Part shown: positions 2,917-27,712 of the stretch, piece after piece
Layout: each line of letters opens with the position of its first letter
Position numbering within the stretch: the first letter of the stretch is position 1
Virus record (IMG/VR): IMGVR_UViG_2648501797_000005
Span: 1-46,841 of that record
Length of the DNA: 46,841 nt
Strand: one strand, 5' to 3'
Source: a virus
Lineage: Duplodnaviria > Heunggongvirae > Uroviricota > Caudoviricetes
Program-made: the position numbers and the translations under genes
Notes under the pieces: model-generated
Databases searched by the model: none
Told to the model about the DNA's origin: nothing
The model's input: only the letters and a program-made list of their open reading frames with translations

Positions 2917-2917
2917 T

Positions 2918-5380: not shown

Positions 5381-5403
5381 GTATCCTCCGGGATTAGGCA
5401 ATA

Positions 5404-5427: not shown

Positions 5428-5441
5428 AAATGGTGAATATT

Positions 5442-6386: not shown

Positions 6387-6387
6387 G

Positions 6388-8135: not shown

Positions 8136-8848
8136 TCGGTGATACTCCCGTTAAACGTTGAAGTCGGCCCCCCGGTATCATTTCCATCGTTGCCGTTTGA
8201 ATGCTCATGGCTGTTAAGCCAGGCCAGAAGCGACTGCCACCCGGCGTGCATGATTGCCGGGCTGGTGCTGGCCACTGAATCCTGCAGGTGACCTGCATCT
8301 CCTGAAAGGCTCCATTTGCTACCTGTCAGTGAAAAAACTGTCCCGCCAACAGTTACAGTGAAGCTGTCAGGTGTGGAAATGGCGATGCTGTCAGGCTTCA
8401 GGAGAAACGTCGTGTTGCTGCCGCTGTCGCGCAGCGTTACACCATCCGGGCCGTATACCGTCACCACCTGCCCGTCGACACCCTGCCACTCGGTATTACT
8501 GATCGGCAAGAAAACAAGGGCGCTTAAGTTTGCTGGCGGAGTCATATCCGCAATGCCGCCTCCCTGACCGCTAACCCCGCCAATGTAAGTATCTGCGGGG
8601 ATAACAATCCCCTTGTCCCCCGGCTGCATAGGGTAACGAATATATTGAGGGCCGAATAAGGGGATAGTCACTTGCGGCAAAACATATGGGATATCCCTTA
8701 GCTCAAAGGAGACGGTGATCATATTCCCTGTTTGCTTGACCACGCTCGCCGGAAGAACTTTCCCTGATTTTTGAAGCGCATTTTCAATCTTTCTTTCAGT
8801 AAACCTGTTCATGCTTGAGGCAAAATTAAGCTTGTTGTCGATGCTCAT
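8132..8848 (-). CDS. baseplate/tail protein (238 aa), possibly spike or hub component
   Basis: Order and coupling only. Confidence 0.35.
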   Translation of the reverse strand: MSIDNKLNFASSMNRFTERKIENALQKSGKVLPASVVKQTGNMITVSFELRDIPYVLPQVTIPLFGPQYIRYPMQPGDKGIVIPADTYIGGVSGQGGGIADMTPPANLSALVFLPISNTEWQGVDGQVVTVYGPDGVTLRDSGSNTTFLLKPDSIAISTPDSFTVTVGGTVFSLTGSKWSLSGDAGHLQDSVASTSPAIMHAGWQSLLAWLNSHEHSNGNDGNDTGGPTSTFNGSITE

Positions 8849-9882
8849 GCACTACCTGCCTTAATGAAAGGGGAAGCCTCAATAATTGTTACCCATGCCT
8901 CTGCCGTTGGTTGCCTGCTATTCCCTAACAGGCGAACGGAGTTCACAATAAAGTCGCCAGTAAAGGCAGAGTCTTCTCGATACTGAGAGTACGAAGAGGC
9001 CTGTATCAACGGAGTGCTTTTTTTAGGCATCAGGATGTGATCGCCAACCTGAATATCACCGCGCATTACGCACGCCATGCTGATTGTGTTAAATGCCACC
9101 CATGTCGGCTGCCCTATCAAATCCTTGAAATCTATTTGGGTTGGGCTGTTGCTTCTGGCTACGGCGCTGGAAACAGAAGTCTTATCCGGGTGGTTATCAT
9201 AATCGTTATCCCATACCCGGATCTCATTACCATTCACTATTGCGATCTCTACACCAGAGTACCCGCTATCGCGAATTCTGGAACGTGAAAAAGCATTAAG
9301 GTCCTTGGCCAGGGTGACAATGTCATCACAAAACAGCCCCCGGTAATGATTAAGGATTAGCCGGTCGCTTATGTTGATATTGTACGTATACCCTCTGATG
9401 TTCATAAAACACTGCGTGAGGGCTACAGAAAGCTTCTGCCCCTCCTTCCAGTCAAAGGTTAAAGGAAGGGGTACGGGTTTGTTATTTGGCACGTTCTGGA
9501 CAGGACCAACCACGATTATGAAGTCAAGTCGTAACTCAATACCCTGCCAGTTACCAAATACCTGATTTATCACGCCATCCAATACCAGTTTTGGTGCGGT
9601 AACCTTGCCAGCCAATGGCAGCCCGTCTTTCATCCCAAGGAATATTTTAATTTTTTTGCCAAAAAAATTCTGGCGAGCCTGCTGCATTTCTTTTGGGCCA
9701 ATACCCCAGATGGTCAGGTGAGTTTCGCCCTGGGGAGTCGATTCACCGTACCTGAGGATATCAAACTCAATCATCAGGGCGCCGGGGTTGTAAACTCCGT
9801 TCTTATGGCTACTGTATTTTATCGTTCTTTCCGGAGAGGCACCTTCAGCAGGAATAGTTATCTCAATATCATAATATCTCAT
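8845..9882 (-). CDS. tail protein (345 aa)
   Basis: Order and coupling only. Confidence 0.35.
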   Translation of the reverse strand: MRYYDIEITIPAEGASPERTIKYSSHKNGVYNPGALMIEFDILRYGESTPQGETHLTIWGIGPKEMQQARQNFFGKKIKIFLGMKDGLPLAGKVTAPKLVLDGVINQVFGNWQGIELRLDFIIVVGPVQNVPNNKPVPLPLTFDWKEGQKLSVALTQCFMNIRGYTYNINISDRLILNHYRGLFCDDIVTLAKDLNAFSRSRIRDSGYSGVEIAIVNGNEIRVWDNDYDNHPDKTSVSSAVARSNSPTQIDFKDLIGQPTWVAFNTISMACVMRGDIQVGDHILMPKKSTPLIQASSYSQYREDSAFTGDFIVNSVRLLGNSRQPTAEAWVTIIEASPFIKAGSA

Positions 9883-10157
9883 GAACTGTTTACCTCAATC
9901 AGTCCATTCTGTTCGCGCCAGTACATGGAGGACGAATTAAACACTCCGGAGATAATATTTATTCCACCGTTAAGCTCGGAGCCAACGAGCGGGGTATTTA
10001 GAATGGTATTCCCAGAGCCATCTGTAATGAGGACATACCACCTCAGCCCGGCAATGTTCCATTTAACCTGGCAGTTATAGACGGTGCCATCAAGGATCGG
10101 TGTAAATGTCATGCTTTGACGATCATTGCCGGTAAACGGATAATTCTGGGTTGTCAT
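9879..10157 (-). CDS. small tail protein (92 aa)
   Basis: Order and coupling only. Confidence 0.35.
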   Translation of the reverse strand: MTTQNYPFTGNDRQSMTFTPILDGTVYNCQVKWNIAGLRWYVLITDGSGNTILNTPLVGSELNGGINIISGVFNSSSMYWREQNGLIEVNSS

Positions 10158-10864
10158 GGCCCTACCCCCAACTTACCCAATAGGCCGGTTATTGCTTCCG
10201 ATACAGAGCTCCCGAGAGGCGTGTTGCCAAGAGCATTGGCGGTATTAGTCCAGGATGGGTCGGTTACCATATCCCCGGCGCCAATCTTGTTTAAAAAATT
10301 GTTCACGGCCTGCTCTGCACCATTATCGGTTATCAGTGGCTGCTCGAAATCCCATATCCATGAACGCTGTGGTAATGGATCGTTACCAGAGGTAATGTCC
10401 CTCACTACACGCAAAATGCAGTTGCTATAGATAACGGATGGGGTGGCGACGATAAACGTGCCGCCTAAGTTAGAATGCGCCTGAAGGACAGACTGCAAAG
10501 CACTCATAGTGACTAGCTTTGTCATCGCCCCGGTGTTTTCATTGACCGGGGCCTCCATTACCAACGAAACGCGCAAAGGCTGAGCAAGCAAGGCGTTCGC
10601 AGCTACTACCTGGTTGGCGAAAGGGTATCTGGCAATTTCATAATCAACCATTGTGGCGCCCTGAACCGGGCGCCAGTGGCAGAAATATTTATCCAGATCG
10701 GTTAGGTTTATGGCTCCTCCAAGCAGCCCCGTAACAAAGCTCGCGCTCTGCGTCAAAGCGACGATCGGGAGCATTCCTCCAGGAATGGCCTGCGCTATCC
10801 CTCCGCAAAGTATTACTGGGGATATTTCAAAACCCAGCTTATACATTTCACGTGTGAATCCCAT
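10154..10864 (-). CDS. tail protein (236 aa)
   Basis: Order and coupling only. Confidence 0.4.
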   Translation of the reverse strand: MGFTREMYKLGFEISPVILCGGIAQAIPGGMLPIVALTQSASFVTGLLGGAINLTDLDKYFCHWRPVQGATMVDYEIARYPFANQVVAANALLAQPLRVSLVMEAPVNENTGAMTKLVTMSALQSVLQAHSNLGGTFIVATPSVIYSNCILRVVRDITSGNDPLPQRSWIWDFEQPLITDNGAEQAVNNFLNKIGAGDMVTDPSWTNTANALGNTPLGSSVSEAITGLLGKLGVGP

Positions 10865-12681
10865 TACCTCGCCCCCAATTGCGCTGAAGTTACCACTGCA
10901 TTCCCACCGGTATTGTTATAGATCTGAATGACTGTGCTCTCAGAAACTCTGCTACCAGCCCCTTCTTTTTGAGATATAGCAGAAATGAGTTTCGCGATAA
11001 CCTGAGGATCATTGAGATTCAGTTTCTGATTCTCATTAAATCCAGTAGTTTTAACCACATGCCGAATATACTCAGCGGTATTATTTTCCTTAGGAGGAGC
11101 CCATTTTCTTGCAATATCTCCTACCGTATTTATTCCTTTAGCGCCATACATTTGAAGTTGCTTTGTCGCCGCCAGTACGCCTTCATCCAGCGTTGGGAAG
11201 ACGGCAAATTTACCGCTTCTCGTATTCTCGCTGCTATATCCTTCAGCCCACCGCAGATTTCCCGGATTATTAAATCGATCTGCAATAGTCCTGTTTCTGT
11301 CGGAAGTATTTGCAGGTGTGGGATCAACAGCTTTAACGGTTCCATCTTCAAAGAAGCGCCTAACACCCTTGAGCCAGCCCCATACATGCGGGTCATCATT
11401 GCTTCCAGGAGTATAGGATTTTCCCGTTTTCGGATCGATGATGGTGCTTGGGCTCAACATCGTTGACCCGGATGATATATCCGCAGTAGAGATACTCGCT
11501 TTCCCTGTTACCCAATCAATAACCTTGCCAATTAGATTTCCCATTTTCTCTACTTTGTCCATAAAGTTGCTTACATCTGTGGAAAATTCAGGAGAAGCGA
11601 GGTAATTACCGAATCGCTCAATGCCGCCGGCCAGCGCATCAATCCACTTGCCGAGTTCGGGTGATTTCAGAACGGTATCGATCGCGCCTGACAGCGCATC
11701 AGACAGCTTGCTCAGTTGCGGCGTGAGTGGCCCAAGGCCGCGCACAAACGTGTTCCTGATGCTCTGGCTGCTGTAGTCGAGTTGGACGTTAAAATCCTGC
11801 CACTGGCGCGCCTGCTGGTCGGTAATTTGCAACATACGCGCATCCTGCTGCGCGCGCTTCTCCATGGCGGTGATCTCTTCATCGCTCATGTTTTTGAAGC
11901 GGTTCAGGTCGTCCAGTGTAAAGAAGTTTGTCAGGCCGTGCGCCTGTGCGCCCTGCAGCGTGCTGCCGTTCTGCACGAAGATATCGCGCGCATTACGGAT
12001 CATCTGCGGGAGCAGTTTGGCCGGGTCCTGGTCGGGGTTGTTAATCCCCATCGCCTGAAACGTCCAGCGCTTCGACAGGTCCATTTGCGAATCGCGGATA
12101 GCGCCCAGCGTACCCGCCGGATTACCCAGCGCTTTCTGGTAGTTTATGGCGGTGGAATCAAGTGCGCCGATGCTCGTCCCGAGCCCGAGAGAGGTAAACC
12201 GCTGGGCGCCGGTGGTGGCCGCCAGCCGGTTGATGCCAAACAGGCCGCCAACGCCCAGGACGCCGGTAAATATCCCGACAATACCACCCCAGGACAGAAG
12301 GCTGGCCGTCGCTTCCTTGATATGCCCTGCCAGCGATTTAGCGTCTTTCGTCGCATCGCTGAGGAAGCCCTTCGCAGATCGGGTGCTTTTGTTGAATTCG
12401 TCCTGCTTTTTCTTCGAGTCTTCCAGGTTGGTATTGAGCCGATCGATACCGCTGTTGATGGTCAGAATGGCCTCGGCCACGGCATTAAACTCCGCGCCTA
12501 ACTCCTTCGCCTCACCTTTGGCCTTTTCGGTCTGCTTGCTGCTTTCTCCAATACCAACGGCAGCTACCCGCCATGCTTCCGGTAAATCATCCAGCGCGCT
12601 CTGGTACTCGCGAAACCTTTCCATAAACGCGACAAACTTGTCGTCATTTACGTCAATGTCAACGATCGACTTAGCTACCAT
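10864..12681 (-). CDS. tail tape measure protein
   Basis: Coiled-coil N-terminal half followed by Gly-rich hydrophobic segment (SWGGIVGIFTGVLGVGGLFGI) typical of tape measure proteins; start taken at in-frame ATG 12681 with AGAGG Shine-Dalgarno (track ORF opens at 12747). Confidence 0.55.
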   Translation of the reverse strand: MVAKSIVDIDVNDDKFVAFMERFREYQSALDDLPEAWRVAAVGIGESSKQTEKAKGEAKELGAEFNAVAEAILTINSGIDRLNTNLEDSKKKQDEFNKSTRSAKGFLSDATKDAKSLAGHIKEATASLLSWGGIVGIFTGVLGVGGLFGINRLAATTGAQRFTSLGLGTSIGALDSTAINYQKALGNPAGTLGAIRDSQMDLSKRWTFQAMGINNPDQDPAKLLPQMIRNARDIFVQNGSTLQGAQAHGLTNFFTLDDLNRFKNMSDEEITAMEKRAQQDARMLQITDQQARQWQDFNVQLDYSSQSIRNTFVRGLGPLTPQLSKLSDALSGAIDTVLKSPELGKWIDALAGGIERFGNYLASPEFSTDVSNFMDKVEKMGNLIGKVIDWVTGKASISTADISSGSTMLSPSTIIDPKTGKSYTPGSNDDPHVWGWLKGVRRFFEDGTVKAVDPTPANTSDRNRTIADRFNNPGNLRWAEGYSSENTRSGKFAVFPTLDEGVLAATKQLQMYGAKGINTVGDIARKWAPPKENNTAEYIRHVVKTTGFNENQKLNLNDPQVIAKLISAISQKEGAGSRVSESTVIQIYNNTGGNAVVTSAQLGAR

Positions 12682-12804
12682 TGAAGAAACCTCTTTCTTT
12701 GAGCGCGGCGAGAAGGTAGCGCTGCCGGTACTGCGCCGGGCTGGCATACTCCTCGCCGGTGATCTCCCTTATCACCTGCCAGAAGCCCTCATTAGACGCC
12801 CAGT

Positions 12805-13377
12805 CTAAGAGGGTATAAATGATGTTTCCGGCTGGGCATTCTGGGTCTGGGTATCGGTAACCGGCTTCGACGTCTGCAACGAATCGCGGAACGCCGTAAC
12901 GCTCGATGAGGTTAGTTGCCCATCGTACATTTTGATCACCGTTCCCACGGTCGGTGCGATCAGGTTTGCCTTCTGAATAGCAGAGGAAACCATAAAAAAA
13001 ACCACTTCGCCTTCGATCTCACGATACTCATCAGGGTCGATAATCCCCTGATTAAATGCCACCTCAAGGGGTGTGGTTTTCCACTGGCCGCCGACGTTAT
13101 GGATAACGACCGTCAGTCGCTGAATTTCATCTACGATGTTCGGGCCTGCCCGACCGTTATCGATTTCCGCTTTCAGGCTCTGCCTCAGCATCATCGCGGC
13201 GATTCTGGCGGCGCCAAGACCACCCACCTGCGAGATGAATTTTGTGAACAGGTTCCCCAGCAGGATGCAGTGTTCTTCCACCACCTCATAGGGGAATGGC
13301 GTCACATGCAGGTAAACGATCGAGCCGTCATCGCGGGTAACGCTGGTGACCAGATTCAGTTTCTTGTCGATTTTCAT
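12805..13377 (-). CDS. tail assembly chaperone-like protein (190 aa)
   Basis: Position between putative tube and tape measure. Confidence 0.35.
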   Translation of the reverse strand: MKIDKKLNLVTSVTRDDGSIVYLHVTPFPYEVVEEHCILLGNLFTKFISQVGGLGAARIAAMMLRQSLKAEIDNGRAGPNIVDEIQRLTVVIHNVGGQWKTTPLEVAFNQGIIDPDEYREIEGEVVFFMVSSAIQKANLIAPTVGTVIKMYDGQLTSSSVTAFRDSLQTSKPVTDTQTQNAQPETSFIPS

Positions 13378-13380
13378 GCA

Positions 13381-13818
13381 TTACACCCACATGTTGTCGT
13401 TAGTGACCATGTAGCCGCTGATGGTTACCACAAAAGCCGGGTCCATCCCGCTGAAAGCCAGCTCGTTGAAGTTGACCAGGTAGCAGTTGAGCAGCGTGAT
13501 ATTGCCGAACGTCGTTGCATCCGGCGTCACCACGATTTCACCCAGCGACGTGTCGGTTAAAAAGCGCTGCCGGTAGCTTTCGCCCAGCCCCTGAGTTTTC
13601 AGAAGATGCACGGTCAGCGTTACCTGCTGATACGGTGCCTGGCTGCCGACGGTGCCGGTCATCGTAGGGATGATGTCGGTTGCCGGGCCGTCAGGACGCA
13701 GGCTAATGCCGTCCTTTGCCAGGTACGACGCCGAAACGTTCAGCGCCGGTGTATCCGTGACGGAAAGAGCCCCGCGTACGCGGTTAAGAAAGCCCTGCGG
13801 TACTAATGGGTTCGCCAT
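13381..13818 (-). CDS. putative tail tube protein (145 aa)
   Basis: Size and position directly downstream of a 464-aa protein. Confidence 0.35.
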   Translation of the reverse strand: MANPLVPQGFLNRVRGALSVTDTPALNVSASYLAKDGISLRPDGPATDIIPTMTGTVGSQAPYQQVTLTVHLLKTQGLGESYRQRFLTDTSLGEIVVTPDATTFGNITLLNCYLVNFNELAFSGMDPAFVVTISGYMVTNDNMWV

Positions 13819-13821
13819 TTT

Positions 13822-15216
13822 TTACGCCCCTACAAAGTTCGTTACGTTCACGTTAAACGTGATGGATTCGAAGCCGCGGCGCGGCGTCATGACTGCGCTC
13901 AGCCCGTTGTATTTTCCTTCCTGATAATCGGAGGGGTTCAGGCTGTTGTAGTTACTGAACGGAACGGCGTTGATCACGGCGTTGCCGGCGTAAGTGCCTT
14001 TGTCATACTCGGTGTTGAAATCTTCCTGCGTCAGTTGCGTGTCAATGACGCGACCGAGGATCAGCCCGTAGCTGATGCCATTACGCAAGGTTTTCAGAGC
14101 GCGACGCTGTAGGCGGTCAATGCCCTTCTGCTCGTAGTACAGCGGGTTAACGGTCGTGTTGGAGCCGTTGATGATTTCATTCGCCAGGTCGAGCTCAAGG
14201 TTGATCGCCGTCCACGCCACCGAATACCAGTAGTTGAACGGGTTACCGTCGAGCATGCGGCCGGTGAACAGCACTTTGTTACTGAGACCACCTTCGGCGC
14301 CGGTACCGATGTAGTTGATGTTGCTGTCCTGAAGCGATTTCAGCAGTGCGCTGTTGCCTTCCAGCGGATACTCAGTCAGGCCGTACATAAAGCGGTACGA
14401 CATCGGCGGCACCATGTTGCTCGACCCCGGGTCGTTTGCCAGGGATGACTGGAACGGGCCGGCCATGGAAAACTCGCTAGCCGGAATATCCGGAGCCTCG
14501 ACGCCAGCAAAGACAGTTTTGTTTTTCGTCGCTGTCCACGCTTCATAGGTCGCGATCGTTGTGGTGACAAAGAAGTAAACCAGACTTCCCGGCGAAGTAT
14601 AGAGGCTGGTCAGGGTTTTAAATTCATCGACCGAATCCCATTCGCGCGGCACCAGATAGGAGAAAAACTTCTGGTAGGTGTTACCCAGGGAGACGTCTTC
14701 AGCAATGAAGGTTGTCAGCGCTGCGACAGCTGCCTCCATGGACACATCGCCCAGTTCCAGCACATAAACTGCCCGCGTTTTCCCCTGGGCCCAGAACGAG
14801 GTATTCATCTGGGAAATTTCGGTCTGTACTACCGTTTTTACCGTACCCATTGCCGTTGCGCTGCCGGGGTTGGCCGTCAGCGGATAGGTGAAGGTGTTGG
14901 CACCTGTCACCGTAGCGGTATAGGCGCCATTGTACCCCGCCGGAGTCGCGCCGGAGATGATCACCGGGACCTGTGAACCGTTAGTCCATCCGTGAGCGGC
15001 AGCCAGCGTGACCGTTACCACGCCAGTATCCCAGGCGAGCGTCGAGATGGTTTTCGCCGGTGCGAGAATGTCGGCCAGGTCGGTTTCACTGGTCAGCAGC
15101 TGATATTCACCGGCATTCAGCGTCGTGCCGCCCATAGAAATCATCGCCCCGGACTTTAACAACTGCGAGGGCTTCGGCGGATTCGTCACCGACACGTTAA
15201 TATTAACAATTGCCAT
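13822..15216 (-). CDS. putative tail sheath protein (464 aa)
   Basis: Size and position ahead of tube-like and tape-measure genes; not verified by motif. Confidence 0.35.
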   Translation of the reverse strand: MAIVNINVSVTNPPKPSQLLKSGAMISMGGTTLNAGEYQLLTSETDLADILAPAKTISTLAWDTGVVTVTLAAAHGWTNGSQVPVIISGATPAGYNGAYTATVTGANTFTYPLTANPGSATAMGTVKTVVQTEISQMNTSFWAQGKTRAVYVLELGDVSMEAAVAALTTFIAEDVSLGNTYQKFFSYLVPREWDSVDEFKTLTSLYTSPGSLVYFFVTTTIATYEAWTATKNKTVFAGVEAPDIPASEFSMAGPFQSSLANDPGSSNMVPPMSYRFMYGLTEYPLEGNSALLKSLQDSNINYIGTGAEGGLSNKVLFTGRMLDGNPFNYWYSVAWTAINLELDLANEIINGSNTTVNPLYYEQKGIDRLQRRALKTLRNGISYGLILGRVIDTQLTQEDFNTEYDKGTYAGNAVINAVPFSNYNSLNPSDYQEGKYNGLSAVMTPRRGFESITFNVNVTNFVGA

Positions 15217-15220
15217 TTAC

Positions 15221-16159
15221 TTATTTCTCCGGGTCAATGGACGGAATTGCAGACGTGATCAGCTGGCGCGCTAAGTTACGCATCCGTTGCTGGTAATAAT
15301 TGATTTTGAATTTGATGGTCTTACGCATGGCGATGATGTTGAGCTCGTTCTGAGTGACTCGCTCATCCTGCACGACGGGAATATTCATGATCCCCATCTC
15401 CGGGGCATCTCCGGTCGTATAGTCCTGCACATACCGCACGAAGTCTTCAATGCTGGCGTTACGCAGGCCGGTGACCGAAAGCGTGACATCTTCCGATACC
15501 AGCTGATACTGGTTTTGCTTCTCGTCCAGATAGAACGCGCCGGCGATCGGTGACGTGTTACTGCATTTCACTGTCGCATAGGGCGGCGAAAGGTTCTGCG
15601 TTGAGAGCATCGCCGGGAACATCGGCATGTACTGATTCAGGGCCAACCAGATCGGCAACGAGCTCGACACCACCACGTCAGAGAGGTCTATGTCATCCGC
15701 AGAGTTGATGATCTGCGACCGCATGTGCGGGAAAATTGCCTCTCCGGTGTAGTGGTACAGGTTCGCCGGCTCATTCAGCCCGGTACGCCGGGAGAACGAG
15801 AACTGAACGCCAAAAAACTCGCCGATGTACAGCACCTCTGACCCGATGTCGTTAAACGGGTCGATGTCCGCCTGCGCGGTGAACGTCACCGCGTTGCGAT
15901 CGTACAGTTGCTCGTCGTCCTGAATGGTTTCGGTCGTCAGGTGCAAATAACCTTTCACATCTACCGTATCCGGCTCATTGTTCGGATCGTCTGACAGGAC
16001 CGAGGCTTTCACCCAGAACACGAATCCATCGAGCGGAAGTACCTTTCTGATGTACTTCGTGAACGTCACCACCTGGAACCGGCTCAGATCATCCAGCCCC
16101 TGTGTCAGGGTAGCGTTAAGCTCGGTTTTGGCGTTCTGTAACTCACTCAGGGAAGGCAT
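15221..16159 (-). CDS. virion morphogenesis protein (312 aa)
   Basis: Located between head and tail gene runs. Confidence 0.4.
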   Translation of the reverse strand: MPSLSELQNAKTELNATLTQGLDDLSRFQVVTFTKYIRKVLPLDGFVFWVKASVLSDDPNNEPDTVDVKGYLHLTTETIQDDEQLYDRNAVTFTAQADIDPFNDIGSEVLYIGEFFGVQFSFSRRTGLNEPANLYHYTGEAIFPHMRSQIINSADDIDLSDVVVSSSLPIWLALNQYMPMFPAMLSTQNLSPPYATVKCSNTSPIAGAFYLDEKQNQYQLVSEDVTLSVTGLRNASIEDFVRYVQDYTTGDAPEMGIMNIPVVQDERVTQNELNIIAMRKTIKFKINYYQQRMRNLARQLITSAIPSIDPEK

Positions 16160-16577
16160 TCAGCACCCCGCTTACCCAGGCTCGCATAGCTGCCTGATAG
16201 GTTCCTGTGTCAATGAACGAAGGGCGTGGCGGCCCCTTTTTGCCTTTAAAGCGCTTCGATATTCCCTCAAGCGCGCGGCGCGTTGGTACGCCAGGGAGGC
16301 CGTTCATCTCGGTGTTATCGAGGAAGCCGACAAAGAGATCGTGAACTTTGGACATTGACTCAGAGAGCGGGTCTTTTGCCGGCGGCGCGCCAGCGAACAT
16401 GTTTTCAAGCGCTGCGGCCAGGTCTTTGCTCATCAGCTCAGCGATGTCGTTCCCGTAGCGGTCAAAGAACGTCTGCATAATCTGATACCTCGCTTCCAGC
16501 TCTTCCGCTACGCTCCCCGTCGTGGTGTCCTCGTCCTCGTAGGGGATATCGATAACGCCCAGATGAAAGGTGATCAT
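16143..16577 (-). CDS. head-tail joining / completion protein (144 aa)
   Basis: Start at ATG 16577 overlapping the upstream TGA; position. Confidence 0.4.
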   Translation of the reverse strand: MITFHLGVIDIPYEDEDTTTGSVAEELEARYQIMQTFFDRYGNDIAELMSKDLAAALENMFAGAPPAKDPLSESMSKVHDLFVGFLDNTEMNGLPGVPTRRALEGISKRFKGKKGPPRPSFIDTGTYQAAMRAWVSGVLNAFPE

Positions 16578-17002
16578 GTCAGACCCCACAGGCTCCCGAA
16601 CTGCTGAGCGAACATCAGGTAGCGACGGCCCCACGGGTCCTGGAGCATCTGCAGATCTGCCAGCGACAGGTCTTTGAAGAAATCAGGGACCAGGCGCTGT
16701 GCGCTGGTAGAGTTATCCCCGGCTCCCGTGATAACCCCGGCTTTGAAGTCATTCAGCCCATATTGTTTACGGAACTCAGCAAACACAGCCTCTGTCCCGT
16801 AATTGATGAGAAACGATGCCCCAAGGTTATAAACCGCGATGCTGTACATGTTAGGCATAACGCACGCGATGTCCGGGTTAACCCATTCAATGGCGCCGCC
16901 ATAGGCGAGAGAAAAAGACGGCGAGTCGTCGGGAACCTGGTCGGGGGTGATGCCCATATCAGATCGAACGAATTCGATGAATCCCGACAGACTGGTGGTC
17001 AT
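16574..17002 (-). CDS. head-tail connector-region protein (142 aa)
   Basis: Position and coupling. Confidence 0.4.
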   Translation of the reverse strand: MTTSLSGFIEFVRSDMGITPDQVPDDSPSFSLAYGGAIEWVNPDIACVMPNMYSIAVYNLGASFLINYGTEAVFAEFRKQYGLNDFKAGVITGAGDNSTSAQRLVPDFFKDLSLADLQMLQDPWGRRYLMFAQQFGSLWGLT

Positions 17003-17481
17003 TTCTTCTTGCTCCCGGCTTTCGGCGTGACAATTTTTTCGTTGATGGTCGGGTCGTCTGAATGGTCATCGCGCCCCTTGGCCTGCTCTGCGCTGAATTC
17101 CATGTCACCTTCGTAGCCGATACCGCTTTCGCGCAGTGTGTTATCCAGCGCGGCGACGGATGCCTGCCGGCGGTTATGAGCCCCGCGGGTCAGATGACCA
17201 TCGTTATCGCGAATGGTTTTCTCAATAACGCTGGCGGAAACGGGTTTGTTGATGCTGTAGCACAGGCCGACAAATGCCTGGCTCTGGTCGATTTTGGTTG
17301 AGTCAACCAGACCGTAAACCTGATGATGCTGAATAACCGCTTCGACTTCTTCGGTCGAGCCATCCAGAACCTGCATCTGTGAGCCGTGCTCAATGGGGAT
17401 CTGGCGAAGGCGCCCGGTTTCCAGCTGGCGGAAAGTGAAGATGTGGCGCTGCTTGGTAGTGTTGGCGATGTACAGTTTCAT
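16999..17481 (-). CDS. structural protein (160 aa)
   Basis: Immediately downstream of the putative major capsid gene. Confidence 0.4.
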   Translation of the reverse strand: MKLYIANTTKQRHIFTFRQLETGRLRQIPIEHGSQMQVLDGSTEEVEAVIQHHQVYGLVDSTKIDQSQAFVGLCYSINKPVSASVIEKTIRDNDGHLTRGAHNRRQASVAALDNTLRESGIGYEGDMEFSAEQAKGRDDHSDDPTINEKIVTPKAGSKKK

Positions 17482-17553
17482 TGTTTACCCTTCGTAAAAA
17501 AGCCCCTGCACAGCGAACCATGCAGAGGCTTAAGCACTTCTCAATTTCGCGTT

Positions 17554-18585
17554 TTAGGAGCTGTATGCCATCGACAGGATGGTGATAGCTTCCGGACGGA
17601 CTGCCCAGCCAGCCGTAGAGCGCATTTCTGACAGCACGTCGATAGCGCCCCCGGGGATTGGCGTCGGGATTTCCATCGGTGCCGCCATGTCGGTGAACAT
17701 CAGGGCATTAGCCGCCAGAGACGGGCTCAGTTTGGCGAATTCGTTGGTGTTCACGGTGGAGTTAACCATCGGCACTTCCACTTCCGGGATGGTGATAACC
17801 ACCGCGTCAGTACCGCCGGCACCGGCGCCGATCAGCGTGTCGTCGTACACCCAGTCAACCTGAACATTCGCGCCACGGAGAACCTCTTTCACGGTGCCGC
17901 CGACGGTATCAGTACCGCCGCCAGGACGCTGATAAGATGTCAGCTGAACGATCTGCTGAATCTCCATCGCGCCCAGCACTCGCTGCGGCCCGAGGATAAC
18001 AACACGCTGCTGGCGACCCAGTTGCATGGTGCGGGTCAGCGCGGCCTGTACATGGCCCAGCAGATAGACAGCCATCTGTCCATGGTCGTAGGTCAGCACA
18101 GTGGTGTTGCTGTTGCTGTCCGGCGGCAGGGTTTCGGTGGTCGCGCCTGCGGTGTTCAGCAGACCTTCGCCGCCTGCCGGGTTCATGCCGTACAGCAGCG
18201 CAGAACGCAACTGCTGGAAGATGCCCTGACGCATGCCGAGACGCTGAGCTTCTGGCAGTGCCACGTTCCAGTTACCGGCCGCCGCGGTGTCGTGGTGATC
18301 GTAGATACCACGGCAGCGGAACAGGTAGGTTGGAGTGGAGATCATGCGCGCCTCGAGCGCCACGCTCGGCAGCTGGTTGGCGTTGCCGGACTGGCTGGAG
18401 GTTACCTGGGTACGAATATCCAGGCGGCGCATATAAACGTACTGGTCGCCTACGCCAAGGCGGACCTGCGGGTTACCGCTGGCGATGGTTTCGAACGCAC
18501 CGGACGCCTGCTGGTAACCAATGATCAACTCCGGCGCAATATACGACGGGTTGACGATGGTGTAGCTGGGGGTAATTGCAGCCAT
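17554..18585 (-). CDS. putative major capsid protein (343 aa)
   Basis: Size and position after scaffold-like gene. Confidence 0.5.
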   Translation of the reverse strand: MAAITPSYTIVNPSYIAPELIIGYQQASGAFETIASGNPQVRLGVGDQYVYMRRLDIRTQVTSSQSGNANQLPSVALEARMISTPTYLFRCRGIYDHHDTAAAGNWNVALPEAQRLGMRQGIFQQLRSALLYGMNPAGGEGLLNTAGATTETLPPDSNSNTTVLTYDHGQMAVYLLGHVQAALTRTMQLGRQQRVVILGPQRVLGAMEIQQIVQLTSYQRPGGGTDTVGGTVKEVLRGANVQVDWVYDDTLIGAGAGGTDAVVITIPEVEVPMVNSTVNTNEFAKLSPSLAANALMFTDMAAPMEIPTPIPGGAIDVLSEMRSTAGWAVRPEAITILSMAYSS

Positions 18586-18598
18586 TTAAAGCTCCCGA

Positions 18599-19459
18599 TT
18601 AAAGTAAGACCAGCGCGCAGCTGTCGGTGTTGTTCCAGGTAAGGAAGCCCGTAGCGCTGTCATAGCTGACAGTTTTAGAGTTCCCGCTCTCGATGGAGAT
18701 GACTTTCACCGGCAGGGTGATGTCTGCCTGAGCCACAGCGCCGATAGTGCCCTGCGTGGTCGCGGAGCCGCCCGGCGCGCTGGCAGGCGCATAGGTGAAG
18801 GTTGTCGTACTCGGTACGGTCAGCACAACGACGGTGCCGTTATAGGCAGCCGGAGCTACGCCGCTGATCTTCACGTACTGGCCTGCAGTCAGACCATGTG
18901 CAGAGGCAGTGGTGGCGGTGGCCACGCCGTTCGAGTAGGTAACAGCGGTCGTGTCAATGTCAGCACCGGCAAAAGCCGCCGCGGCTGCGGTGGTCACCTG
19001 GTTATTGACGAAGTCCCACGCCAGCGGCGTTTTCACCGATGCGCCAGCGGTTCCCAGTGCGACCACCTGCGCTGACGCTTTCAGCGGAACGCGCATGTTG
19101 GAGCCAAGGCGATAGAATGAAACGCTCATGCCGGACGCATACAGCGGAACCGGTGATTGCGGAGTGGTAAGCCCGTTGTGGGCCTGGTTGAAGACGGTGA
19201 AGCCTTCGAGCTCAGCCAGTGATACAGCGCGACGAATAGTCGACCCGCGAGGACTGGAGTTCACGCCGGGCAGCAACTCGGCAACCGGCAGGCCACCCCA
19301 CAGCGGTTTGGTTTCGGTGGTGGCGACAGTGCCGGACGCCAGGTTAAAGCGGTTTGCCGGATCATCCAGAGCAACGCCCTGAATGAAGCCATCAGACTGC
19401 ACACCGAAGGAACCAGCGGCATTCGTGGTCGCCATCGGGTTAAGAGATAAATTAGCCAT
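18599..19459 (-). CDS. virion structural protein (286 aa), possibly decoration or second scaffold
   Basis: Ala/Thr/Gly-rich protein between scaffold-like and capsid genes. Confidence 0.4.
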   Translation of the reverse strand: MANLSLNPMATTNAAGSFGVQSDGFIQGVALDDPANRFNLASGTVATTETKPLWGGLPVAELLPGVNSSPRGSTIRRAVSLAELEGFTVFNQAHNGLTTPQSPVPLYASGMSVSFYRLGSNMRVPLKASAQVVALGTAGASVKTPLAWDFVNNQVTTAAAAAFAGADIDTTAVTYSNGVATATTASAHGLTAGQYVKISGVAPAAYNGTVVVLTVPSTTTFTYAPASAPGGSATTQGTIGAVAQADITLPVKVISIESGNSKTVSYDSATGFLTWNNTDSCALVLL

Positions 19460-19474
19460 GCTTCAGAGCTCCCG

Positions 19475-21091
<1,617 letters not shown>

Positions 21092-21100
21092 TTAATGCTC

Positions 21101-21922
21101 CTATGCTGCTTTCATGGACTCCAGGAACTTGCGGCCCTTCTGGGTCAGCATGTCCTCGGGAATGCTGCGGAGGTTGTACAGATAGGTGACGTAGCACCGA
21201 CAGAAAACCTCTTCGCCAGGCTGCGTAATTTCGTCTAGATAGCCGGCAGGGCCAGCTTTGACATAGCCATTTTTCTGCGCCCAGTTCCCGCGGATGAGAT
21301 AGACCAGCTTGTCACGTTCCTTGTGATCTTCCCGGTAGTCGTACCCTGGCTGGCGCCAGTGGCTATGCCACTCGGCAGCAATCGCGTTGTTGCCCTTCGC
21401 GATGATGTTGTCGATATTGGCGATCAGCTTATGGCCCTGGTCAATCATCACGCGGCGCGCTTCATAGTCCACCTTCTCGGCGGCCTTCTGAATGTGCGCC
21501 GCCGTCTCCCGCATCGTTCCCTGAATGCCGGTCAGCGCAATGCTGTCTGCTGAGGGAATGCTGCTGGCCCATCCGCTAAACCGCGACAGAGTAGTGTCGA
21601 TGGCTTTCTTGCGATTCAGCTTTATCAGGTCAGCGCTGGCCAGGATGCGGCGATCCAGCTCGCTGCGTAACTTCGGCTCCATGTAGTTCAGCGTGAAGCG
21701 TGAAAGCCCCTTGTGGCGCTCCAGCGCTCCAGCCTTGCTCACCTGCAGGTCATAGGTCTTACGCAACCGATCCGACACCATGCTCATGTAGTCGTCATCG
21801 GTTTCGCTTTCGGCCGCCTGCCGGATAATGGCCTGCCATTGCTCCAGCTCCTGCCTCGAGGTGTAGCCATTGCGCAGAAAGAACTTCACCGCCTCGCGTA
21901 CGGTTCGCGTGAAAGTCTTCAT
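21101..21922 (-). CDS. head morphogenesis / minor head protein (273 aa)
   Basis: Directly follows portal with ATGA overlap. Confidence 0.45.
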   Translation of the reverse strand: MKTFTRTVREAVKFFLRNGYTSRQELEQWQAIIRQAAESETDDDYMSMVSDRLRKTYDLQVSKAGALERHKGLSRFTLNYMEPKLRSELDRRILASADLIKLNRKKAIDTTLSRFSGWASSIPSADSIALTGIQGTMRETAAHIQKAAEKVDYEARRVMIDQGHKLIANIDNIIAKGNNAIAAEWHSHWRQPGYDYREDHKERDKLVYLIRGNWAQKNGYVKAGPAGYLDEITQPGEEVFCRCYVTYLYNLRSIPEDMLTQKGRKFLESMKAA

Positions 21923-23334
21923 AGCATCATCCCGCCGCCGGGCTCTTCATCCCGTGGCTGTTCAGGCCGGTTAGCCTTTAACGAGTCGATATCGAGATCA
22001 AGTCGCTGCGGGAACAGGCTTTCGTTAGCGTTCGCATTGGTCTGCGCCCACTCGATAAGAAGCGCGCGGTTCTCATCATCCGTGTTTACCTGCGGGAGAA
22101 GGACTTCCAGCATGCTGACGATGGCCTTAAAGCGGATTTCGTCGACCTTCACTTTTTCGCTTTCCGGCTCTTTCAGGGATGACGGCCAGCGATATTCGAA
22201 GTTGTTAATCCATGAGGAGAAATACAGGCTGTACGTGTTTTTAAGCTCCGGGAAGTCAGCACGCAGAGAATTGAAAAACTCAATGCTCCAGGCGCGATAC
22301 TGGCAAATACGGATGAAATAGTCATACAGCGGCTCAAGCCACTCGCGGATGTTGTCGATGTAGACTGCAACAGATCGAGCGTCTTCCGTCCCCTCGCCGA
22401 AGCCCTGGGCGAATGTTTCCGAGTTCAGAATGATAGCCGGCATGTCAGCTGCCGCAGCGATATTCTCCAGAATGTGATTCCGGGAGGAGTCGAGCGGCTT
22501 TTCCAGGTTGCTCAGGTCGATGGATTCGATGCTGTCATTTGCGCCGATCTGCAGGACTTCGCCTGTCTTCCCTCGCTTCAGCATCATTCGTTTGATGCCG
22601 CTGAGCTTTTGCATCATGTTGTTGACGACTGAGCTCGGTCCCTGAATCTTCGTTACCAGCAAGCCACCCTTCACGGAAACCATGTCATCGGTGCGCATGG
22701 TCTGGATGAAGGATTTCAGCGGGAACAGAGCGCGCTGGTAAACGCTGCGTCCGGTAAAGCCAAAGGCCGCAGAGTTATAGGCCAGATAAATCGGGTCCTC
22801 GTTCTGTTGCACGACGCAGCGGGATTTGTGATACGGCTTGCCCGCCACTCTGATCCCGTCGACCTTCTGGAAGTCCTGCGCGTTCGGATCCTGGTTCAGG
22901 ACGATGCTTCCGGCAGTGTTCAGCGGGTCGAGAATGTTGAATGTCACGTTGTGCTTATACAGCGTGCGGTAGTCCACCGCAGAGGACGGCTCCTGGTTAT
23001 CAACCAGCATTGCGATCGCCGAAACACCGTAAATGCGAGAGATGCGCGCCGCATTAGCGATGTGCTTATCGGCGCCCAGTGCTTTCCACTCCCGCTCAAA
23101 TGCATCGCGGAGACGCTGCTCAATGCCATACGCCTGCGAAATGTGAACCGTGCGCGACTCGTTCATCGCCATCTTGATCGGGCGATCTACCATTTTCCCG
23201 CCAAGCGGGTGGAAGAGGTAAATCGTTTTGCAGGTCTGATAGCCAGCCGACATACCCGGCTGAATATCATCACTGTCCAGGAGCGTGATCAGCTCCGGCG
23301 AGCAACTGCCGATTGCGATATCATCTTCGTTCAT
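21919..23334 (-). CDS. portal protein (471 aa)
   Basis: Size and position immediately after terminase large subunit. Confidence 0.6.
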   Translation of the reverse strand: MNEDDIAIGSCSPELITLLDSDDIQPGMSAGYQTCKTIYLFHPLGGKMVDRPIKMAMNESRTVHISQAYGIEQRLRDAFEREWKALGADKHIANAARISRIYGVSAIAMLVDNQEPSSAVDYRTLYKHNVTFNILDPLNTAGSIVLNQDPNAQDFQKVDGIRVAGKPYHKSRCVVQQNEDPIYLAYNSAAFGFTGRSVYQRALFPLKSFIQTMRTDDMVSVKGGLLVTKIQGPSSVVNNMMQKLSGIKRMMLKRGKTGEVLQIGANDSIESIDLSNLEKPLDSSRNHILENIAAAADMPAIILNSETFAQGFGEGTEDARSVAVYIDNIREWLEPLYDYFIRICQYRAWSIEFFNSLRADFPELKNTYSLYFSSWINNFEYRWPSSLKEPESEKVKVDEIRFKAIVSMLEVLLPQVNTDDENRALLIEWAQTNANANESLFPQRLDLDIDSLKANRPEQPRDEEPGGGMML

Positions 23335-23345
23335 TGGTTTTCTCG

Positions 23346-24677
23346 CTAGAGTGCGTCGCCGCTACCGAACGCGATGATCAGCCCGTAGGTGTAATCATCC
23401 AGCAAATCGTCGGCGCGCTTGTGCGCGTTCTTATCGGCAAGGTGGAATCGTGATACCTGCTTATGCAGATGGTTTGCTGTTTCGCCCTTGAAGACTGCCG
23501 TCTTCTCGTAGGCGTATCGGGATATTTTCGCCAGCCCGCGGTAGTGATACCCAGAGGCCATAATGGCGCGCTCGTCCTTCCCTTTGCTGGTCAGGGCGGA
23601 TTCAATTTTGTTGACCGGCCATCCCAGGCTCTCGCCTTTCTGCAGAAGGATGCTGCCCATACTGGCGTCTTCAATGAAAACGCCGAGGCTGCCATTTACA
23701 GCGACGCACTGGCCGGATAGCTCATTCAGCCGGGTGAAAACGGACGGAATCCACTCTTCCAGCAGCGCGCCGTCGATCTGCACCACATCCCAGTCAAGAA
23801 TGGTCAGGCGCTGAATTCCGGGCCGGGTGTCTACGGCGTAGTAAACCACCGCCGTGCCGTCGTGCTCAGTACCGCCCTTAACGGCGGTATCCATGACAGC
23901 GAAAACGGCCTGGCACATCTCAGGGTAATCGACAGGCTGATCCTGGTTTTCACCCTCGAACCATTTGCGGACGTCGAACAGCGACGCAGCGGACCAGTCG
24001 ACGAACTCGGCCAGGAACTCCTGCCGGAAAACGCGAGGATCGTTGTTCTGTCGCTCTTTCTCCAGCTCCTCGGGAGGAACGAAGGGGTTTGATGACGTCG
24101 GCGCGTGATGCTCATGGAAGCCGAGGTCTTTGTTATGGCAGATGGCATAGAAGAAATTTTCTTCGTCCACACCGTCAGGCGTTGAGAATACGTAAGCCCG
24201 GCCCTTTGTCGTCAGCAGCGTCGGCTTAATCGACTTCGGCCAGATTTCCTTCAGCATTTCAGGCGACTTGGTAAACGCCGCCTCATCGATCAGGATAATT
24301 TCGTACTCACGACCACGACCGGCCAGTTTGTTGTCGTTGGTGACCCAGAAGTCAATCTTCCCGCCGTTCTTCAGCAGCAGGCGCTTTTCCTGCCGGCTGA
24401 AACTCTTTTTCAGCGGCAACAGGATTTCTTCCAGCTTGTCGTAGATCTCCTGGTACTGGCGATACTCAGCAGTGAAGATACCGACCCGGCCTCCCAGCTC
24501 GATGTCCATGCCCGGGCGCCGAAACTGCGACGTTGCGTAGGTCACCGCGGCGCTCGACAGCATGAAGGTTTTCCCCCAGCGTCGACCACAGCGAACCGCA
24601 TTCAACTGGTGATCCCAGGAATCAGACCAGACCGTTAACTGCCCGTTGTGTAGCGTGGGTAGGTAAATGTCGGCCAT
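23346..24677 (-). CDS. terminase large subunit
   Basis: 443 aa with Walker A-like CGRRWGKT near the N-terminus; follows small-subunit-like gene. Confidence 0.75.
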   Translation of the reverse strand: MADIYLPTLHNGQLTVWSDSWDHQLNAVRCGRRWGKTFMLSSAAVTYATSQFRRPGMDIELGGRVGIFTAEYRQYQEIYDKLEEILLPLKKSFSRQEKRLLLKNGGKIDFWVTNDNKLAGRGREYEIILIDEAAFTKSPEMLKEIWPKSIKPTLLTTKGRAYVFSTPDGVDEENFFYAICHNKDLGFHEHHAPTSSNPFVPPEELEKERQNNDPRVFRQEFLAEFVDWSAASLFDVRKWFEGENQDQPVDYPEMCQAVFAVMDTAVKGGTEHDGTAVVYYAVDTRPGIQRLTILDWDVVQIDGALLEEWIPSVFTRLNELSGQCVAVNGSLGVFIEDASMGSILLQKGESLGWPVNKIESALTSKGKDERAIMASGYHYRGLAKISRYAYEKTAVFKGETANHLHKQVSRFHLADKNAHKRADDLLDDYTYGLIIAFGSGDAL

Positions 24678-25478: not shown

Positions 25479-25946
25479 TTACTTCAGGCACTGCGTGGTG
25501 ATGTATTCCTGCAGGGCTCTCAGGGCTGTTTGGTCGCTGAGGATTCCGGACCGGATACCGAGAACGTTTCGTCCAGCAACTGCAGAGAGTTCGACGGTGG
25601 CATCATTGCCCATGCCGGAGGCGCTGGAGGTTTTGGCTGAGGCTGGCACAGGGCATTTTCCTTTGACGAGCACCCGACCACCATTATCAAGCTTGCGCCG
25701 AAGAGCATCATTTTCAGCTTTCGCATCCGCTAACTCCTTTGTGTATTTAGCATCGAGTGCATCTGCATCACGCTGGCGCTGCTGCATGTCAGTAATGGTG
25801 GCGTTCACCTTCTCCAGTTCACTGGCCTTGTTATCGCGCTGCTCTTTGTAGGCGATGGCGTTATCACGGTAATGATTAACAGCCCATGACAGGCAGACGA
25901 TGATGCAGATAACCAGAGCTGAGATAATCGCGGTTACTCTGCTCAT
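25479..25946 (-). CDS. Rz: Rz i-spanin
   Basis: N-terminal [30 protein letters not shown] matches lambda Rz; C-terminal half diverged. Confidence 0.85.
25520..25726 (-). CDS. Rz1: Rz1 o-spanin lipoprotein embedded in the +1 frame of Rz
   Basis: MRKLKMML...VVGCSS lipobox followed by Pro-rich segment, nested inside Rz. Confidence 0.7.
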
Positions 25947-26419
25947 ACCTCAATCTCTCTGACCGTTCCGCCAGCTTCTTTGAATTTTGCAATCAGGCTG
26001 TCAGCCTTATGCTCGAACTGACCATAACCAGCCCCCGGCAGTGAAGCCCAGATATTGCTGCAACGGTCGATTGCCTGACGAATATCACCGTGGTCAATCA
26101 TCGGTAAAGCGCCACGCTCTTTAATCTGTTGCAGTGCCACAGCGTCCTGGCTTTTCGGAGAGAAGTCTTTCAGGCCAAGCTGCTTACGATAGGCATCCCA
26201 CCAACGGGAAAGAAGCTGGTAGCGTCCGGCGGCTGTTGATTTGAGTTTGGGGTTTAGCGTGACAAGTTTGCGAGGGTGATCGGAGTAATCAGTGAATAGC
26301 TCTCCGCCAACAATGACGTCATAACCATGATTTCTGGTTTTCTGCCGTCCGTTATCAGTTCCCTCTGACCACGCCAGCATATCGAGGAACGCCTTACGTT
26401 GATTATTGATTTCCACCAT
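25943..26419 (-). CDS. R: endolysin (lytic transglycosylase R)
   Basis: Near-identical to lambda R as I recall it ([24 protein letters not shown]...). Confidence 0.9.
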
Positions 26420-26726
26420 CTTCTATTCCGGCTTTTTTAGCAGCGAAGCGTTTGATAAGCGAACCAATCGAGTCAGTACCGATGTAGCCGATGAACACGC
26501 TCGTTATATAAGCGAGATTGCTACTTAGTCCGGCGAAGTCGAGAAGGTCACGAATGAACCAGGCGATAATGGCGCACATCGTTGCGTCGATTACTGTTTT
26601 TGTAAACGCACCGCCATTATATCTGCCGCGAAGGTACGCCATTGCAAACGCAAGGATTGCCCCGATGCCTTGTTCCTTTGCCGCGAGAATGGCGGCTAAC
26701 AGGTCATGTTTTTCTGGCATCTTCAT
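26403..26726 (-). CDS. S: holin S (dual-start MKM motif)
   Basis: [39 protein letters not shown]... matches lambda S107. Confidence 0.9.
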
Positions 26727-26953
26727 GTCTTAGCCCCAATAAGGGGATTTGCTCTATTTAATTAGGAATAAGGGCAAAACGGCAGGAGGTTGTTAGCGCA
26801 ACCTCTTGCCACCCGCTTTCACGAAGCCAGCCATTGCGCTGGTTTTCTTTTATGCAAAGCACACCGCACCGTAGCCACAGCGGATAAGGTGATTATTTTT
26901 GTCTGTCTGGTATTTGGTTTGATGTGCTTTCAGAAAGGTCGTGATTAAAACGC

Positions 26954-26981
26954 AAAAAGCCCCGAGCTATTAACTCAGGGC
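26954..26981 (-). terminator. tR'-like intrinsic terminator about 40 nt downstream of the pR' start (short 6S-like leader)
   Basis: Minus-strand hairpin AGCCCTGAG...CTCGGGGCT followed by TTTTT. Confidence 0.5.
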
Positions 26982-27017
26982 TTTATTTAACGAGTGCATT
27001 TATCCATCGTTGAGTCA

Positions 27018-27046
27018 AATTTACCCAACTTTATTCAAAAAGTCAA
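27018..27046 (-). promoter_or_regulatory. late promoter pR' (with overlapping qut region)
   Basis: Minus-strand TTGACT - 17 bp - TAAATT followed by TTGACTCAACGATGG, as in lambda pR'. Confidence 0.6.
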
Positions 27047-27088
27047 TATCATGCCGTTAATATGTTGCCATCCGTGGAAATCATGCTG

Positions 27089-27712
27089 CTAACGTGTGAC
27101 CGCATTCAAAATGTTGTCTGCGATTGACTCTTCTTTGTGGCATTGCACCACCAGAGCGTCATACAGCGGCTTAACAGTGCGTGACCAGGTGGGTTGAGTA
27201 AGGTTTGGGATTAGCATCGTTACAGCGCGATATGCGGCGCTTGCTGGCATTCTTGAATAGCCGACACCTTTGCATCTTCCGCACTCTTTCTCAACAACTC
27301 TCCCCCACTGCTCCGTTTTGGCTATATCAACCGCACGGCCTGTACCGTGGCAATCTCTGCATCTTGCCCCCGGCGTCGCGGCACTACGGCAATAATCCGC
27401 ATAAGCGAATGTTGCGAGCACTTGCAGTACCTTTGCCTTAGTATTTCCTTCAAGCTTTGCCACACCACGGTATTTCCCCGATACCTTGTGTGCAAATTGC
27501 ATCAGATAGTTGATAGCCTTTTGTTTGTCGTTCTGGCTGAGTTCATGCTTACCGCAGAATGCAGCCATTCCGAATCCGGCTTGTGATTGCGCCATCCCCA
27601 TAGCAGCCATCACATCAGTACCGGAAAGAGAGTCGGAAGCCGTAGCCCGTGGTGAGTCGCTCATCATCGGGCTTTTTGGCGAATGAAATTTAGCTACGCT
27701 TTCGAGTCTCAT
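27089..27712 (-). CDS. Q: late antiterminator Q
   Basis: 207 aa, near-identical to lambda Q as recalled ([28 protein letters not shown]...). Confidence 0.9.

Follow-up and report, generated by a model that had tools for sequence, protein, structure and literature searches.

The closest described systems are the late control regions of phages lambda and P22 and the pR' leader of the Stx phages. In lambda, transcription from the late promoter pR' gives a leader of 194 nt (44587..44780) that ends in a complex tR' hairpin; tandem late terminators in this phage were reportedly the subject of a 1983 study by Luk and Szybalski. With regard to Q-type antitermination, the roles of the qut elements have been described: Q loads, together with NusA, from a binding element embedded in the promoter spacer, none of the known qut elements extends beyond +6, pausing has occurred by about +17, and the qut architecture includes a promoter-proximal pause at 16–25 nt (PMC4914094). 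That work, in its treatment of NusA and nascent-RNA length, deals with where the pause lies, not with how far away the terminator is, and is used here as general support only. Further, lambda Q and P22 Q (gp23) have been reported to be interchangeable (PMC8022706).

In the RefSeq record of P22 (NC_002371.2), the late promoter ('P late or PR''), the qut site and the 5' nucleotide of the late RNA, an A used as +1, are all marked, and positions +31..+59 carry the feature 'terminator: t late or tR'; antiterminated by gene 23 protein action'. A compact pR'-tR' arrangement, being annotated in P22, is thus already known, and the P22 type of late control, with the gene 23 antiterminator, is common to HK97, HK022, epsilon34 and the mEp phages. 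For P22, PMC7547250 cites Roberts et al. 1976 on a short late RNA. In Stx phages, the RNA StxS is made constitutively from pR' and ends at tR' in lysogens (PMC7547250).

Here we analyzed the interval between the Q and S genes in a window of 46,841 nt, i.e., the whole of the tailed-phage record IMGVR_UViG_2648501797_000005, in which the late control region is read from the minus strand (Table 1). The gap between Q and S spans 27088..26727 (362 bp) and is 314 bp shorter than its lambda counterpart (44510..45185, 676 bp). According to the list of open reading frames, Q, S, R and Rz are all intact, and the Q protein was identical to lambda Q in 206/207 amino acids (99.5%). Positions relative to transcription are counted from the first A of AACGAT, the presumed start (+1 = 27011); by the same rule, +1 in lambda is 44587.

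Table 1. Features of the Q–S interval and of the adjoining late genes in the window.
Feature	Position (relative to +1)	Strand	Basis
Q antiterminator gene, lambda type, 207 aa	27712..27089	minus	Pfam PF03589 (Antiterm), E 1.3e-57
Late promoter pR'	27046..27018	minus	promoter scan; 27/29 identical to lambda pR'
pR' -35 hexamer TTGACT	27046..27041	minus	promoter scan
pR' spacer, 17 bp, with putative Q-binding element	between -35 and -10	minus	alignment with lambda
pR' -10 hexamer TAAATT	27023..27018	minus	promoter scan
qut, pause-inducing part: -35-like TTGACT	27018..27013	minus	identical to lambda
qut, pause-inducing part: -10-like AACGAT	27011..27006	minus	identical to lambda
tR' (t late), predicted intrinsic terminator (hairpin 1)	26984..26954 (+28..+58)	minus	scan, fold, P22 homology
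C-rich/G-poor untranslated stretch, 60 nt	26938..26879 (+74..+133)	minus	composition
Hairpin 2, core	26810..26781 (+202..+231)	minus	fold; lambda homolog
Hairpin 2 with outer stem	26814..26772 (+198..+240)	minus	fold; lambda homolog
Junction of 71-nt deletion	26772/26771	minus	alignments with lambda and with HK97/P22
CCCC-UUAUU-GGGG stem-loop abutting the S ribosome-binding site	26746..26734	minus	conserved with lambda
S holin/antiholin gene	26726..26403	minus	list of open reading frames; Pfam PF05106, E 2.4e-30
R	26419..25943	minus	list of open reading frames
Rz	25946..25479	minus	list of open reading frames

Of the elements that define the lambda type (type 1) of Q-dependent control, the following were found: a gene of the Q family immediately upstream, a pR' whose spacer holds the putative Q-binding element, and the AACGAT/TTGACT pair. 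From the Q stop codon to +23, the window aligned nearly base for base with lambda, both mismatches being located in the pR' spacer. A scan with the promoter consensus alone returned 3 promoter-like sites against 3.3 expected, which is chance level; pR' is taken as real because of its homology to lambda (2 mismatches in 29 bp and an identical pause element) and not because of its match to the consensus. In line with this, the original prediction of a lambda-like pR' with the hexamers TTGACT and TAAATT was borne out at 17-bp spacing. The record of phage mEp235 annotates PR' and qut at this place, without a terminator. The presumed start at 27011 corresponds to the A that the P22 RefSeq record marks as the late RNA 5' nucleotide, and a sigma70-dependent pause would be expected, by analogy with lambda, at +16/+17 (26996/26995). 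The two spacer polymorphisms are common and occur with compact and lambda leaders alike; no co-segregation with leader type was seen among the viral contigs listed.

Two minor observations concern the same region. A 5' stem, AACGA/UCGUU, at 26989-27011 of the minus strand (+1..+23) is kept in every leader type, including that of lambda and the rare variants, and ends exactly where the homology between lambda and compact leaders ceases; it may represent a 5'-end structure of the leader or late mRNA, or simply a recombination boundary. In the HK97 record (AF069529, around position 1005 of locus L004), the -10 hexamer and the pause element are one A further apart, so that HK97 reads TTGACATCAACGAT where others read TTGACTCAACGAT, which is either a genuine qut spacing variant or a sequencing error.

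The first hairpin downstream of the pause consists of a stem, AAAGCCCUGAG/CUCGGGGCUUU, of 11–13 bp, a loop of 3–6 nt (UUAAUA) and a U5 tract at +54..+58. It had been placed at 26954..26981, and these coordinates are right, with the full stem and the U5 tract running from 26984 to 26954. It was the only terminator-like site that the scan flagged on the minus strand from Q to S. The overall number of such sites (5 against 3.5 expected) was unremarkable, so that the locus stands above chance by homology and thermodynamics rather than by scan counts: the segment +1..+67 folded at -23.3 kcal/mol (z = -4.3), which none of 200 shuffled sequences equalled, and over +28..+58 hairpin 1 was identical to tR' of P22 (NC_002371.2) at 29/32 positions and lay at the equivalent position. 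Among 17 unique compact leaders, 97% of the pair cells held standard pairs, with a compensatory change at one pair only, and the covariation score was reached by 28 of 500 shuffles. Covariation was consequently dropped as proof of hairpin 1; as the variants are nearly identical and a single pair shows compensation, its support comes from conservation. By computation and homology, a predicted intrinsic terminator thus lies downstream of the pause site and ahead of the first of the late genes, and the terminated leader RNA is predicted to measure about 57–59 nt. The start site, pausing, termination and Q-dependent read-through are those that homology with lambda and P22 would predict, and the efficiency of termination, the RNA 3' end and the response to Q at hairpin 1 are likewise proposed from the sequence.

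This arrangement contrasted with that of lambda. When the lambda pR'-S interval was aligned, as the original prediction had suggested, the ordinary lambda spacing was not seen: homology broke off at +23 and resumed at TTCGTGAA (about +429 in lambda), just before hairpin 2, and the window sequence from +24 up to that point was unrelated to lambda. The two phages have in common pR', the Q-binding element, TTGACT, AACGAT and transcript nucleotides 1–23 with the 5' stem, and, further downstream, hairpin 2, the start region of S and the CCCC/GGGG stem-loop. Only lambda has the remainder of the 6S RNA with its complex tR', the LPR2 segment (+230..+264) and the orf-64 region. As claimed beforehand, the first terminator is much nearer to the promoter than the lambda 6S tR', being a simple hairpin that ends at +58; its U-tract lies at +54..+58 against +188..+193 in lambda, and the leader is about 135 nt shorter. 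Hairpin 2 is found at +445..+474 in lambda (45031..45060) and at +202..+231 in the window, and the ATG of S at +600 and +286, respectively.

No full-length counterpart of lambda 6S RNA (about 194 nt) was found in the window, as the homology stops at +23. The same applied to LPR2, the small RNA of about 63 nt from the lambda late operon: the reverse complement of the Northern probe P844 (Silverman et al.) maps to lambda +230..+264, for which the alignment with lambda shows a gap in the window. Given that the remainder of the 6S RNA and the LPR2 segment are both absent, the window encodes neither the 194-nt 6S RNA nor LPR2.

The nearest relatives were found among phages of the P22 and HK97 type. 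The 1.3-kb stretch from Q to S was 99.8% identical to phage mEp235 and, one indel aside, 97–98% identical to HK544, HK106, HK97, HK022, Sf101 and other mEp and HK phages, and a more sensitive search added the P22 group of Salmonella phages, which was about 82% identical. The P22 late region and the window share the Q family, promoter, qut and start nucleotide, a homologous terminator at an equivalent place (+31..+59 in P22, +28..+58 in the window), the C-rich composition of the spacer, hairpin 2 and an S-type holin with a dual start. They differ in the terminator loop (UUUAACC in P22, UUAAUA in the window), in the spacer sequence and in a 71-nt segment ahead of S, kept in P22 as in HK97 and lambda but missing from the window. 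The block from the promoter to +73 was 91–100% identical in the window and in P22; identity fell to 50% over the 60 nt that follow (+74..+133). Judged by these alignments, the compact spacing is the arrangement of the P22, HK97, HK022 and mEp phages and not a peculiarity of the window.

Public annotation of hairpin 1 is inconsistent. In the alignment, the +31..+59 feature of P22 is its homolog, and the record of phage Emek has a rho-independent terminator annotated at the same position. The HK620 record (AF335538, positions 791-833 of locus L127), in contrast, labels the homolog 'qut' and puts its late terminator tQ (1422-1448 of L127) about 650 nt downstream. The mEp235 and HK97 records leave hairpin 1 unannotated.

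To describe the distribution of the compact form, IMG/VR was scanned for exact matches to GGGTAAATTTGACTCAACGATGG, which gave at least 119 loci; 116 viral contigs had sufficient flanks and were classed by leader type. Among these matches listed, all with the exact pause motif, 95 leaders were compact and 21 were of the lambda type. The compact form is therefore commoner than the long 6S version of lambda among the matches listed that carry a lambda-type Q-loading site, and it is present in the plaque-forming phages HK97, HK022, the mEp series and P22. With respect to complete E. coli genomes, 1218/5426 matched part of the interval and 262/5426 matched at least 80% of it; a 100% identical interval was found in at least five E. 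coli chromosomes among the matches listed.

The spacer that follows the terminator stands out by composition. Its C/G ratio at +74..+133 was 3.6, compared to 2.57 for the 99th percentile of 60-nt windows on the same strand, and the counterparts gave 3.7 in P22, despite 50% sequence identity, and 4.4 in HK97. On this composition, the stretch is a possible rut-like Rho-loading region that could act as a back-up block downstream of tR'.

The original prediction of a second strong hairpin before S, at about 26776..26816 and as in lambda, also held, since a homolog exists at lambda 45031..45060 and the fold reached -22.3 kcal/mol (z = -2.8). Hairpin 2 reads GGCAAGAGGUUG-CGCUAA-CAACCUCCUGCC and forms a stem of 12 bp with one internal mismatch, closed by an outer GGGU/GCCC helix. 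It persisted in 31 unique variants, mostly with a mismatch at one internal position, and the Salmonella types showed a T-A to C-G compensation and, in some cases, a replaced loop on a retained stem. The sequence after it is GUUUUG in the E. coli phages and UGAUCUG or UGAUUUG in the Salmonella (P22-type) phages. Hairpin 2 was not supported as a second intrinsic terminator, because its U-tract is not conserved in the Salmonella relatives and is located inside the outer helix. It was rejected as an equivalent of LPR2, whose probe maps to the lambda-only segment right after tR'. The segment from hairpin 2 onwards accompanies S even in phages with unrelated Q genes, and in CUS-3 it is annotated as 'bsq3 boundary sequence'. 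From this pattern, hairpin 2 is probably part of the S 5'-UTR module and not a terminator; its role, if any, may be in the stability, processing or translation of S mRNA.

A stretch of 71 nt that lambda, HK97, P22 and most relatives carry downstream of hairpin 2, ahead of the ribosome-binding region of S, is missing from the window; the original prediction had not mentioned this. The deletion removes GTGCATATCGG...AATCGACC, including the inverted repeat GAACAAATC...GGATTTGTTC, so that S starts at +286 instead of +357. Among the relatives, the missing segment is near-invariant (1 variable site in about 66 nt). The same junction was found in mEp235 and, among the loci compared, in 8 others (viral contigs); as mEp235 is plaque-forming, the 71-nt segment is dispensable.

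At the start codons of S, there is a CCCC/GGGG stem-loop, distinct from hairpin 2, which is a putative counterpart of the sdi structure reported for lambda by Blasi et al. 1989. The dual start ATGAAGATG (26726..26718) places start codons at 26726 and 26720 with a Lys codon in between and, as in lambda S, is preceded by a stem-loop that overlaps the ribosome-binding site; presumably, the dual start and the stem-loop together constitute the dual-start translational control familiar from lambda. At 26733 (minus strand), the window and mEp235 have GGGGC in the ribosome-binding region of S, where lambda and HK97 have GGGGG; this change could shift the balance between the S107 and S105 start sites.

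Taken as a whole, the interval is, with high confidence on the sequence comparisons, the compact P22/HK97 version of the antitermination switch by which a lambdoid prophage controls its late genes. The following sequence of events is proposed. Host sigma70 RNA polymerase would initiate constitutively at pR', at about 27011, and sigma70 would re-bind at the AACGAT -10-like element, aided by the adjacent TTGACT, to hold the polymerase at about +16/+17. In cells without Q, the polymerase would resume and terminate at hairpin 1 (+56..+59), a leader of about 58 nt would be released, and S, R, Rz and the virion genes would stay silent. When present, Q would bind the element in the promoter spacer and join the paused complex with NusA, and the modified polymerase would then read through tR' and later terminators, among which there may be a Rho-dependent one in the C-rich stretch. 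As parts of the S 5' UTR, hairpin 2 and the CCCC/GGGG stem-loop would act, if at all, on the stability or translation of S mRNA. Termination some 40 nt past the pause evidently suffices, as P22, HK97 and the mEp phages grow normally.

As the standard late switch of a very common lambdoid group, the locus has little discovery value, and its use is corrective. The textbook 194-nt 6S leader is the minority form among the matches listed, most of which place tR' about 40 nt past the Q-loading pause. Lysogens of the compact group should hence produce a pR' transcript of about 58 nt, not 6S RNA, and should lack LPR2, which is relevant for extending work on lambda small RNAs to other prophages.

The leader itself might have a function. 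Lysogens could produce it constitutively as a small RNA that acts in trans, perhaps bound by Hfq, in the manner of StxS, with the compact form having been selected for it; such a role would be an addition to the antitermination switch and not a replacement, and we regard it as unlikely though conceivable by analogy. In the case of StxS, a pR' leader was turned into an Hfq-dependent small RNA, and the generality of this was proposed in the same study (PMC7547250); the 6S RNA of lambda is also Hfq-associated, with few targets (bioRxiv 10.1101/2024.10.31.621285). StxS and the leader predicted here are alike in being short, constitutive pR' RNAs arising as by-products of Q-type antitermination. 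By description, the two also differ: StxS belongs to a different Q/qut type and arises as a 74-nt species when RNase E cleaves a longer leader at +173. The window leader has a generic small-RNA layout with the 5' stem, an A-rich linker (AAAUAAA), the terminator hairpin and a U-tail; the U5 tail, however, is short for an Hfq-binding RNA, the hairpin 1 loop differs between E. coli and Salmonella types, and the leader has no Rfam family. If the small-RNA role were true, the near-invariance from E. coli to Salmonella phages (91–100% identity over +1..+58, diverging to 50% beyond +74) would reflect a regulatory function, but promoter, pause and terminator function together with modular recombination fully explain this conservation. 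The further combination, in which a StxS-like trans-acting leader in lysogens and a Rho back-up in the C-rich stretch form a two-layer block overridden by Q, seems to us rather improbable.

With regard to other content of the gap, no cargo gene was found between Q and S, in agreement with the original prediction: the tRNA scan of the whole window found none, an Rfam scan of 26300..27400 returned nothing at E<=1, and three small open reading frames wholly or largely inside the gap (32, 34 and 52 aa) had no Pfam match. That the interval hides a small protein gene is very unlikely. The first candidate, a 34-aa frame with a GTG start at 26758-26862 (minus strand) that spans hairpin 2, matched phrog_22751 at E 9e-23, and its homolog, of 51 aa in several HK and mEp phages, is annotated as 'hypothetical protein' in HK140, mEp234, Sf101 and ECP1, but this match shows only that others have annotated the same DNA. 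Although the frame is open in most relatives, with a slight excess of synonymous changes (8/21, against 4/20 in other frames), it is not convincing as a gene: it ends within or just before hairpin 2 in 11/77 loci, is shifted in the Salmonella types and has no consistent start codon in lambda-type upstream sequence. Its variable sites are spread 5/5/8 over the codon positions, without clear bias, the 3' two-thirds being invariant at all positions, and the C-terminus in the window differs owing to the 71-nt deletion. The second candidate, an antisense frame at 26790-26948 (plus strand), has a hydrophobic C-terminus (VIIFVCLVFGLMCFQKGRD) and ends at a TAA abutting hairpin 1, which on the plus strand is followed by UUUAUUU, so that the hairpin might terminate in both directions. 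As a type I toxin-like peptide it was rejected, since it is interrupted in Salmonella-type relatives and cut to 10-11 aa in 18 loci, with non-synonymous changes and a marginal PHROG match. On the same strand, a terminator-like hairpin at 26823-26855 (GAAGCCAGCC-AUUGCG-CUGGUUUU, then CUUUUAU) is opposed to late transcription; it had a z of -2.0 only, is absent from lambda and has no known transcript to end.

The labelling in HK620, where the hairpin 1 homolog is called 'qut' and tQ stands far downstream, raises the question of whether hairpin 1 is a Q-utilisation or RNA-stability element rather than a functional tR', with the Q-sensitive block located further downstream. The candidates for such a block would be hairpin 2 together with GUUUUG, its 3' neighbour in the E. 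coli types, or termination by Rho within the C-rich/G-poor stretch after hairpin 1. We give this little credence, as the canonical features of an intrinsic terminator are all found in hairpin 1, the one site flagged by the minus-strand scan, and not in hairpin 2, whose U-tract is sequestered in the E. coli types and replaced in the P22-type phages. Further, the P22 and Emek records name the homolog a terminator, and the end of known qut elements at +6, with the pause by about +17 (PMC4914094), is upstream of hairpin 1.

Finally, that the compactness is recent damage by deletion to a lambda-type region in a decaying prophage, to which the 314-bp difference from lambda and the restriction of the 71-nt deletion to a minority of relatives might point, is refuted for practical purposes by the distribution of the compact form among viable phages, as the same pR'-tR' layout is found in plaque-forming P22, HK97, HK022 and mEp235 (the last of which also has the 71-nt deletion) and in 95/116 viral contigs among the matches listed, with Q, S, R and Rz intact in the window.

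Leaders other than the two main types were also encountered. In rare loci, hairpins with different stems, e.g., GCCCCGCGG...CCGUGGGGC, occupy the position of hairpin 1. In seven loci (L051, L058 and 5 others, with +1..+70 ending in ...GCGTTTGCACAA), a compact tR' is followed by a long hairpin similar to that of lambda LPR2 (GCACAACAGGTAAGAGCA...); the presence of both in the same contigs indicates that leader modules recombine independently.

With respect to the wider genome, the right part of the window resembles the early regions of HK106, mEp234 and IME10, and the early region together with Q-S-R-Rz is of the E. coli HK/mEp/lambda type. The half that holds the virion genes (313..24677), with baseplate-J and a DUF1073 portal, was about 95% identical to the Klebsiella phages vB_Kpn_Chronis, RothC and RothD. 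Judged by these similarities, the window is an inter-genus mosaic prophage, an instance of ordinary lambdoid mosaicism in which, on the gene order predicted here, a non-lambda morphogenetic module is under the control of a lambda-type Q.
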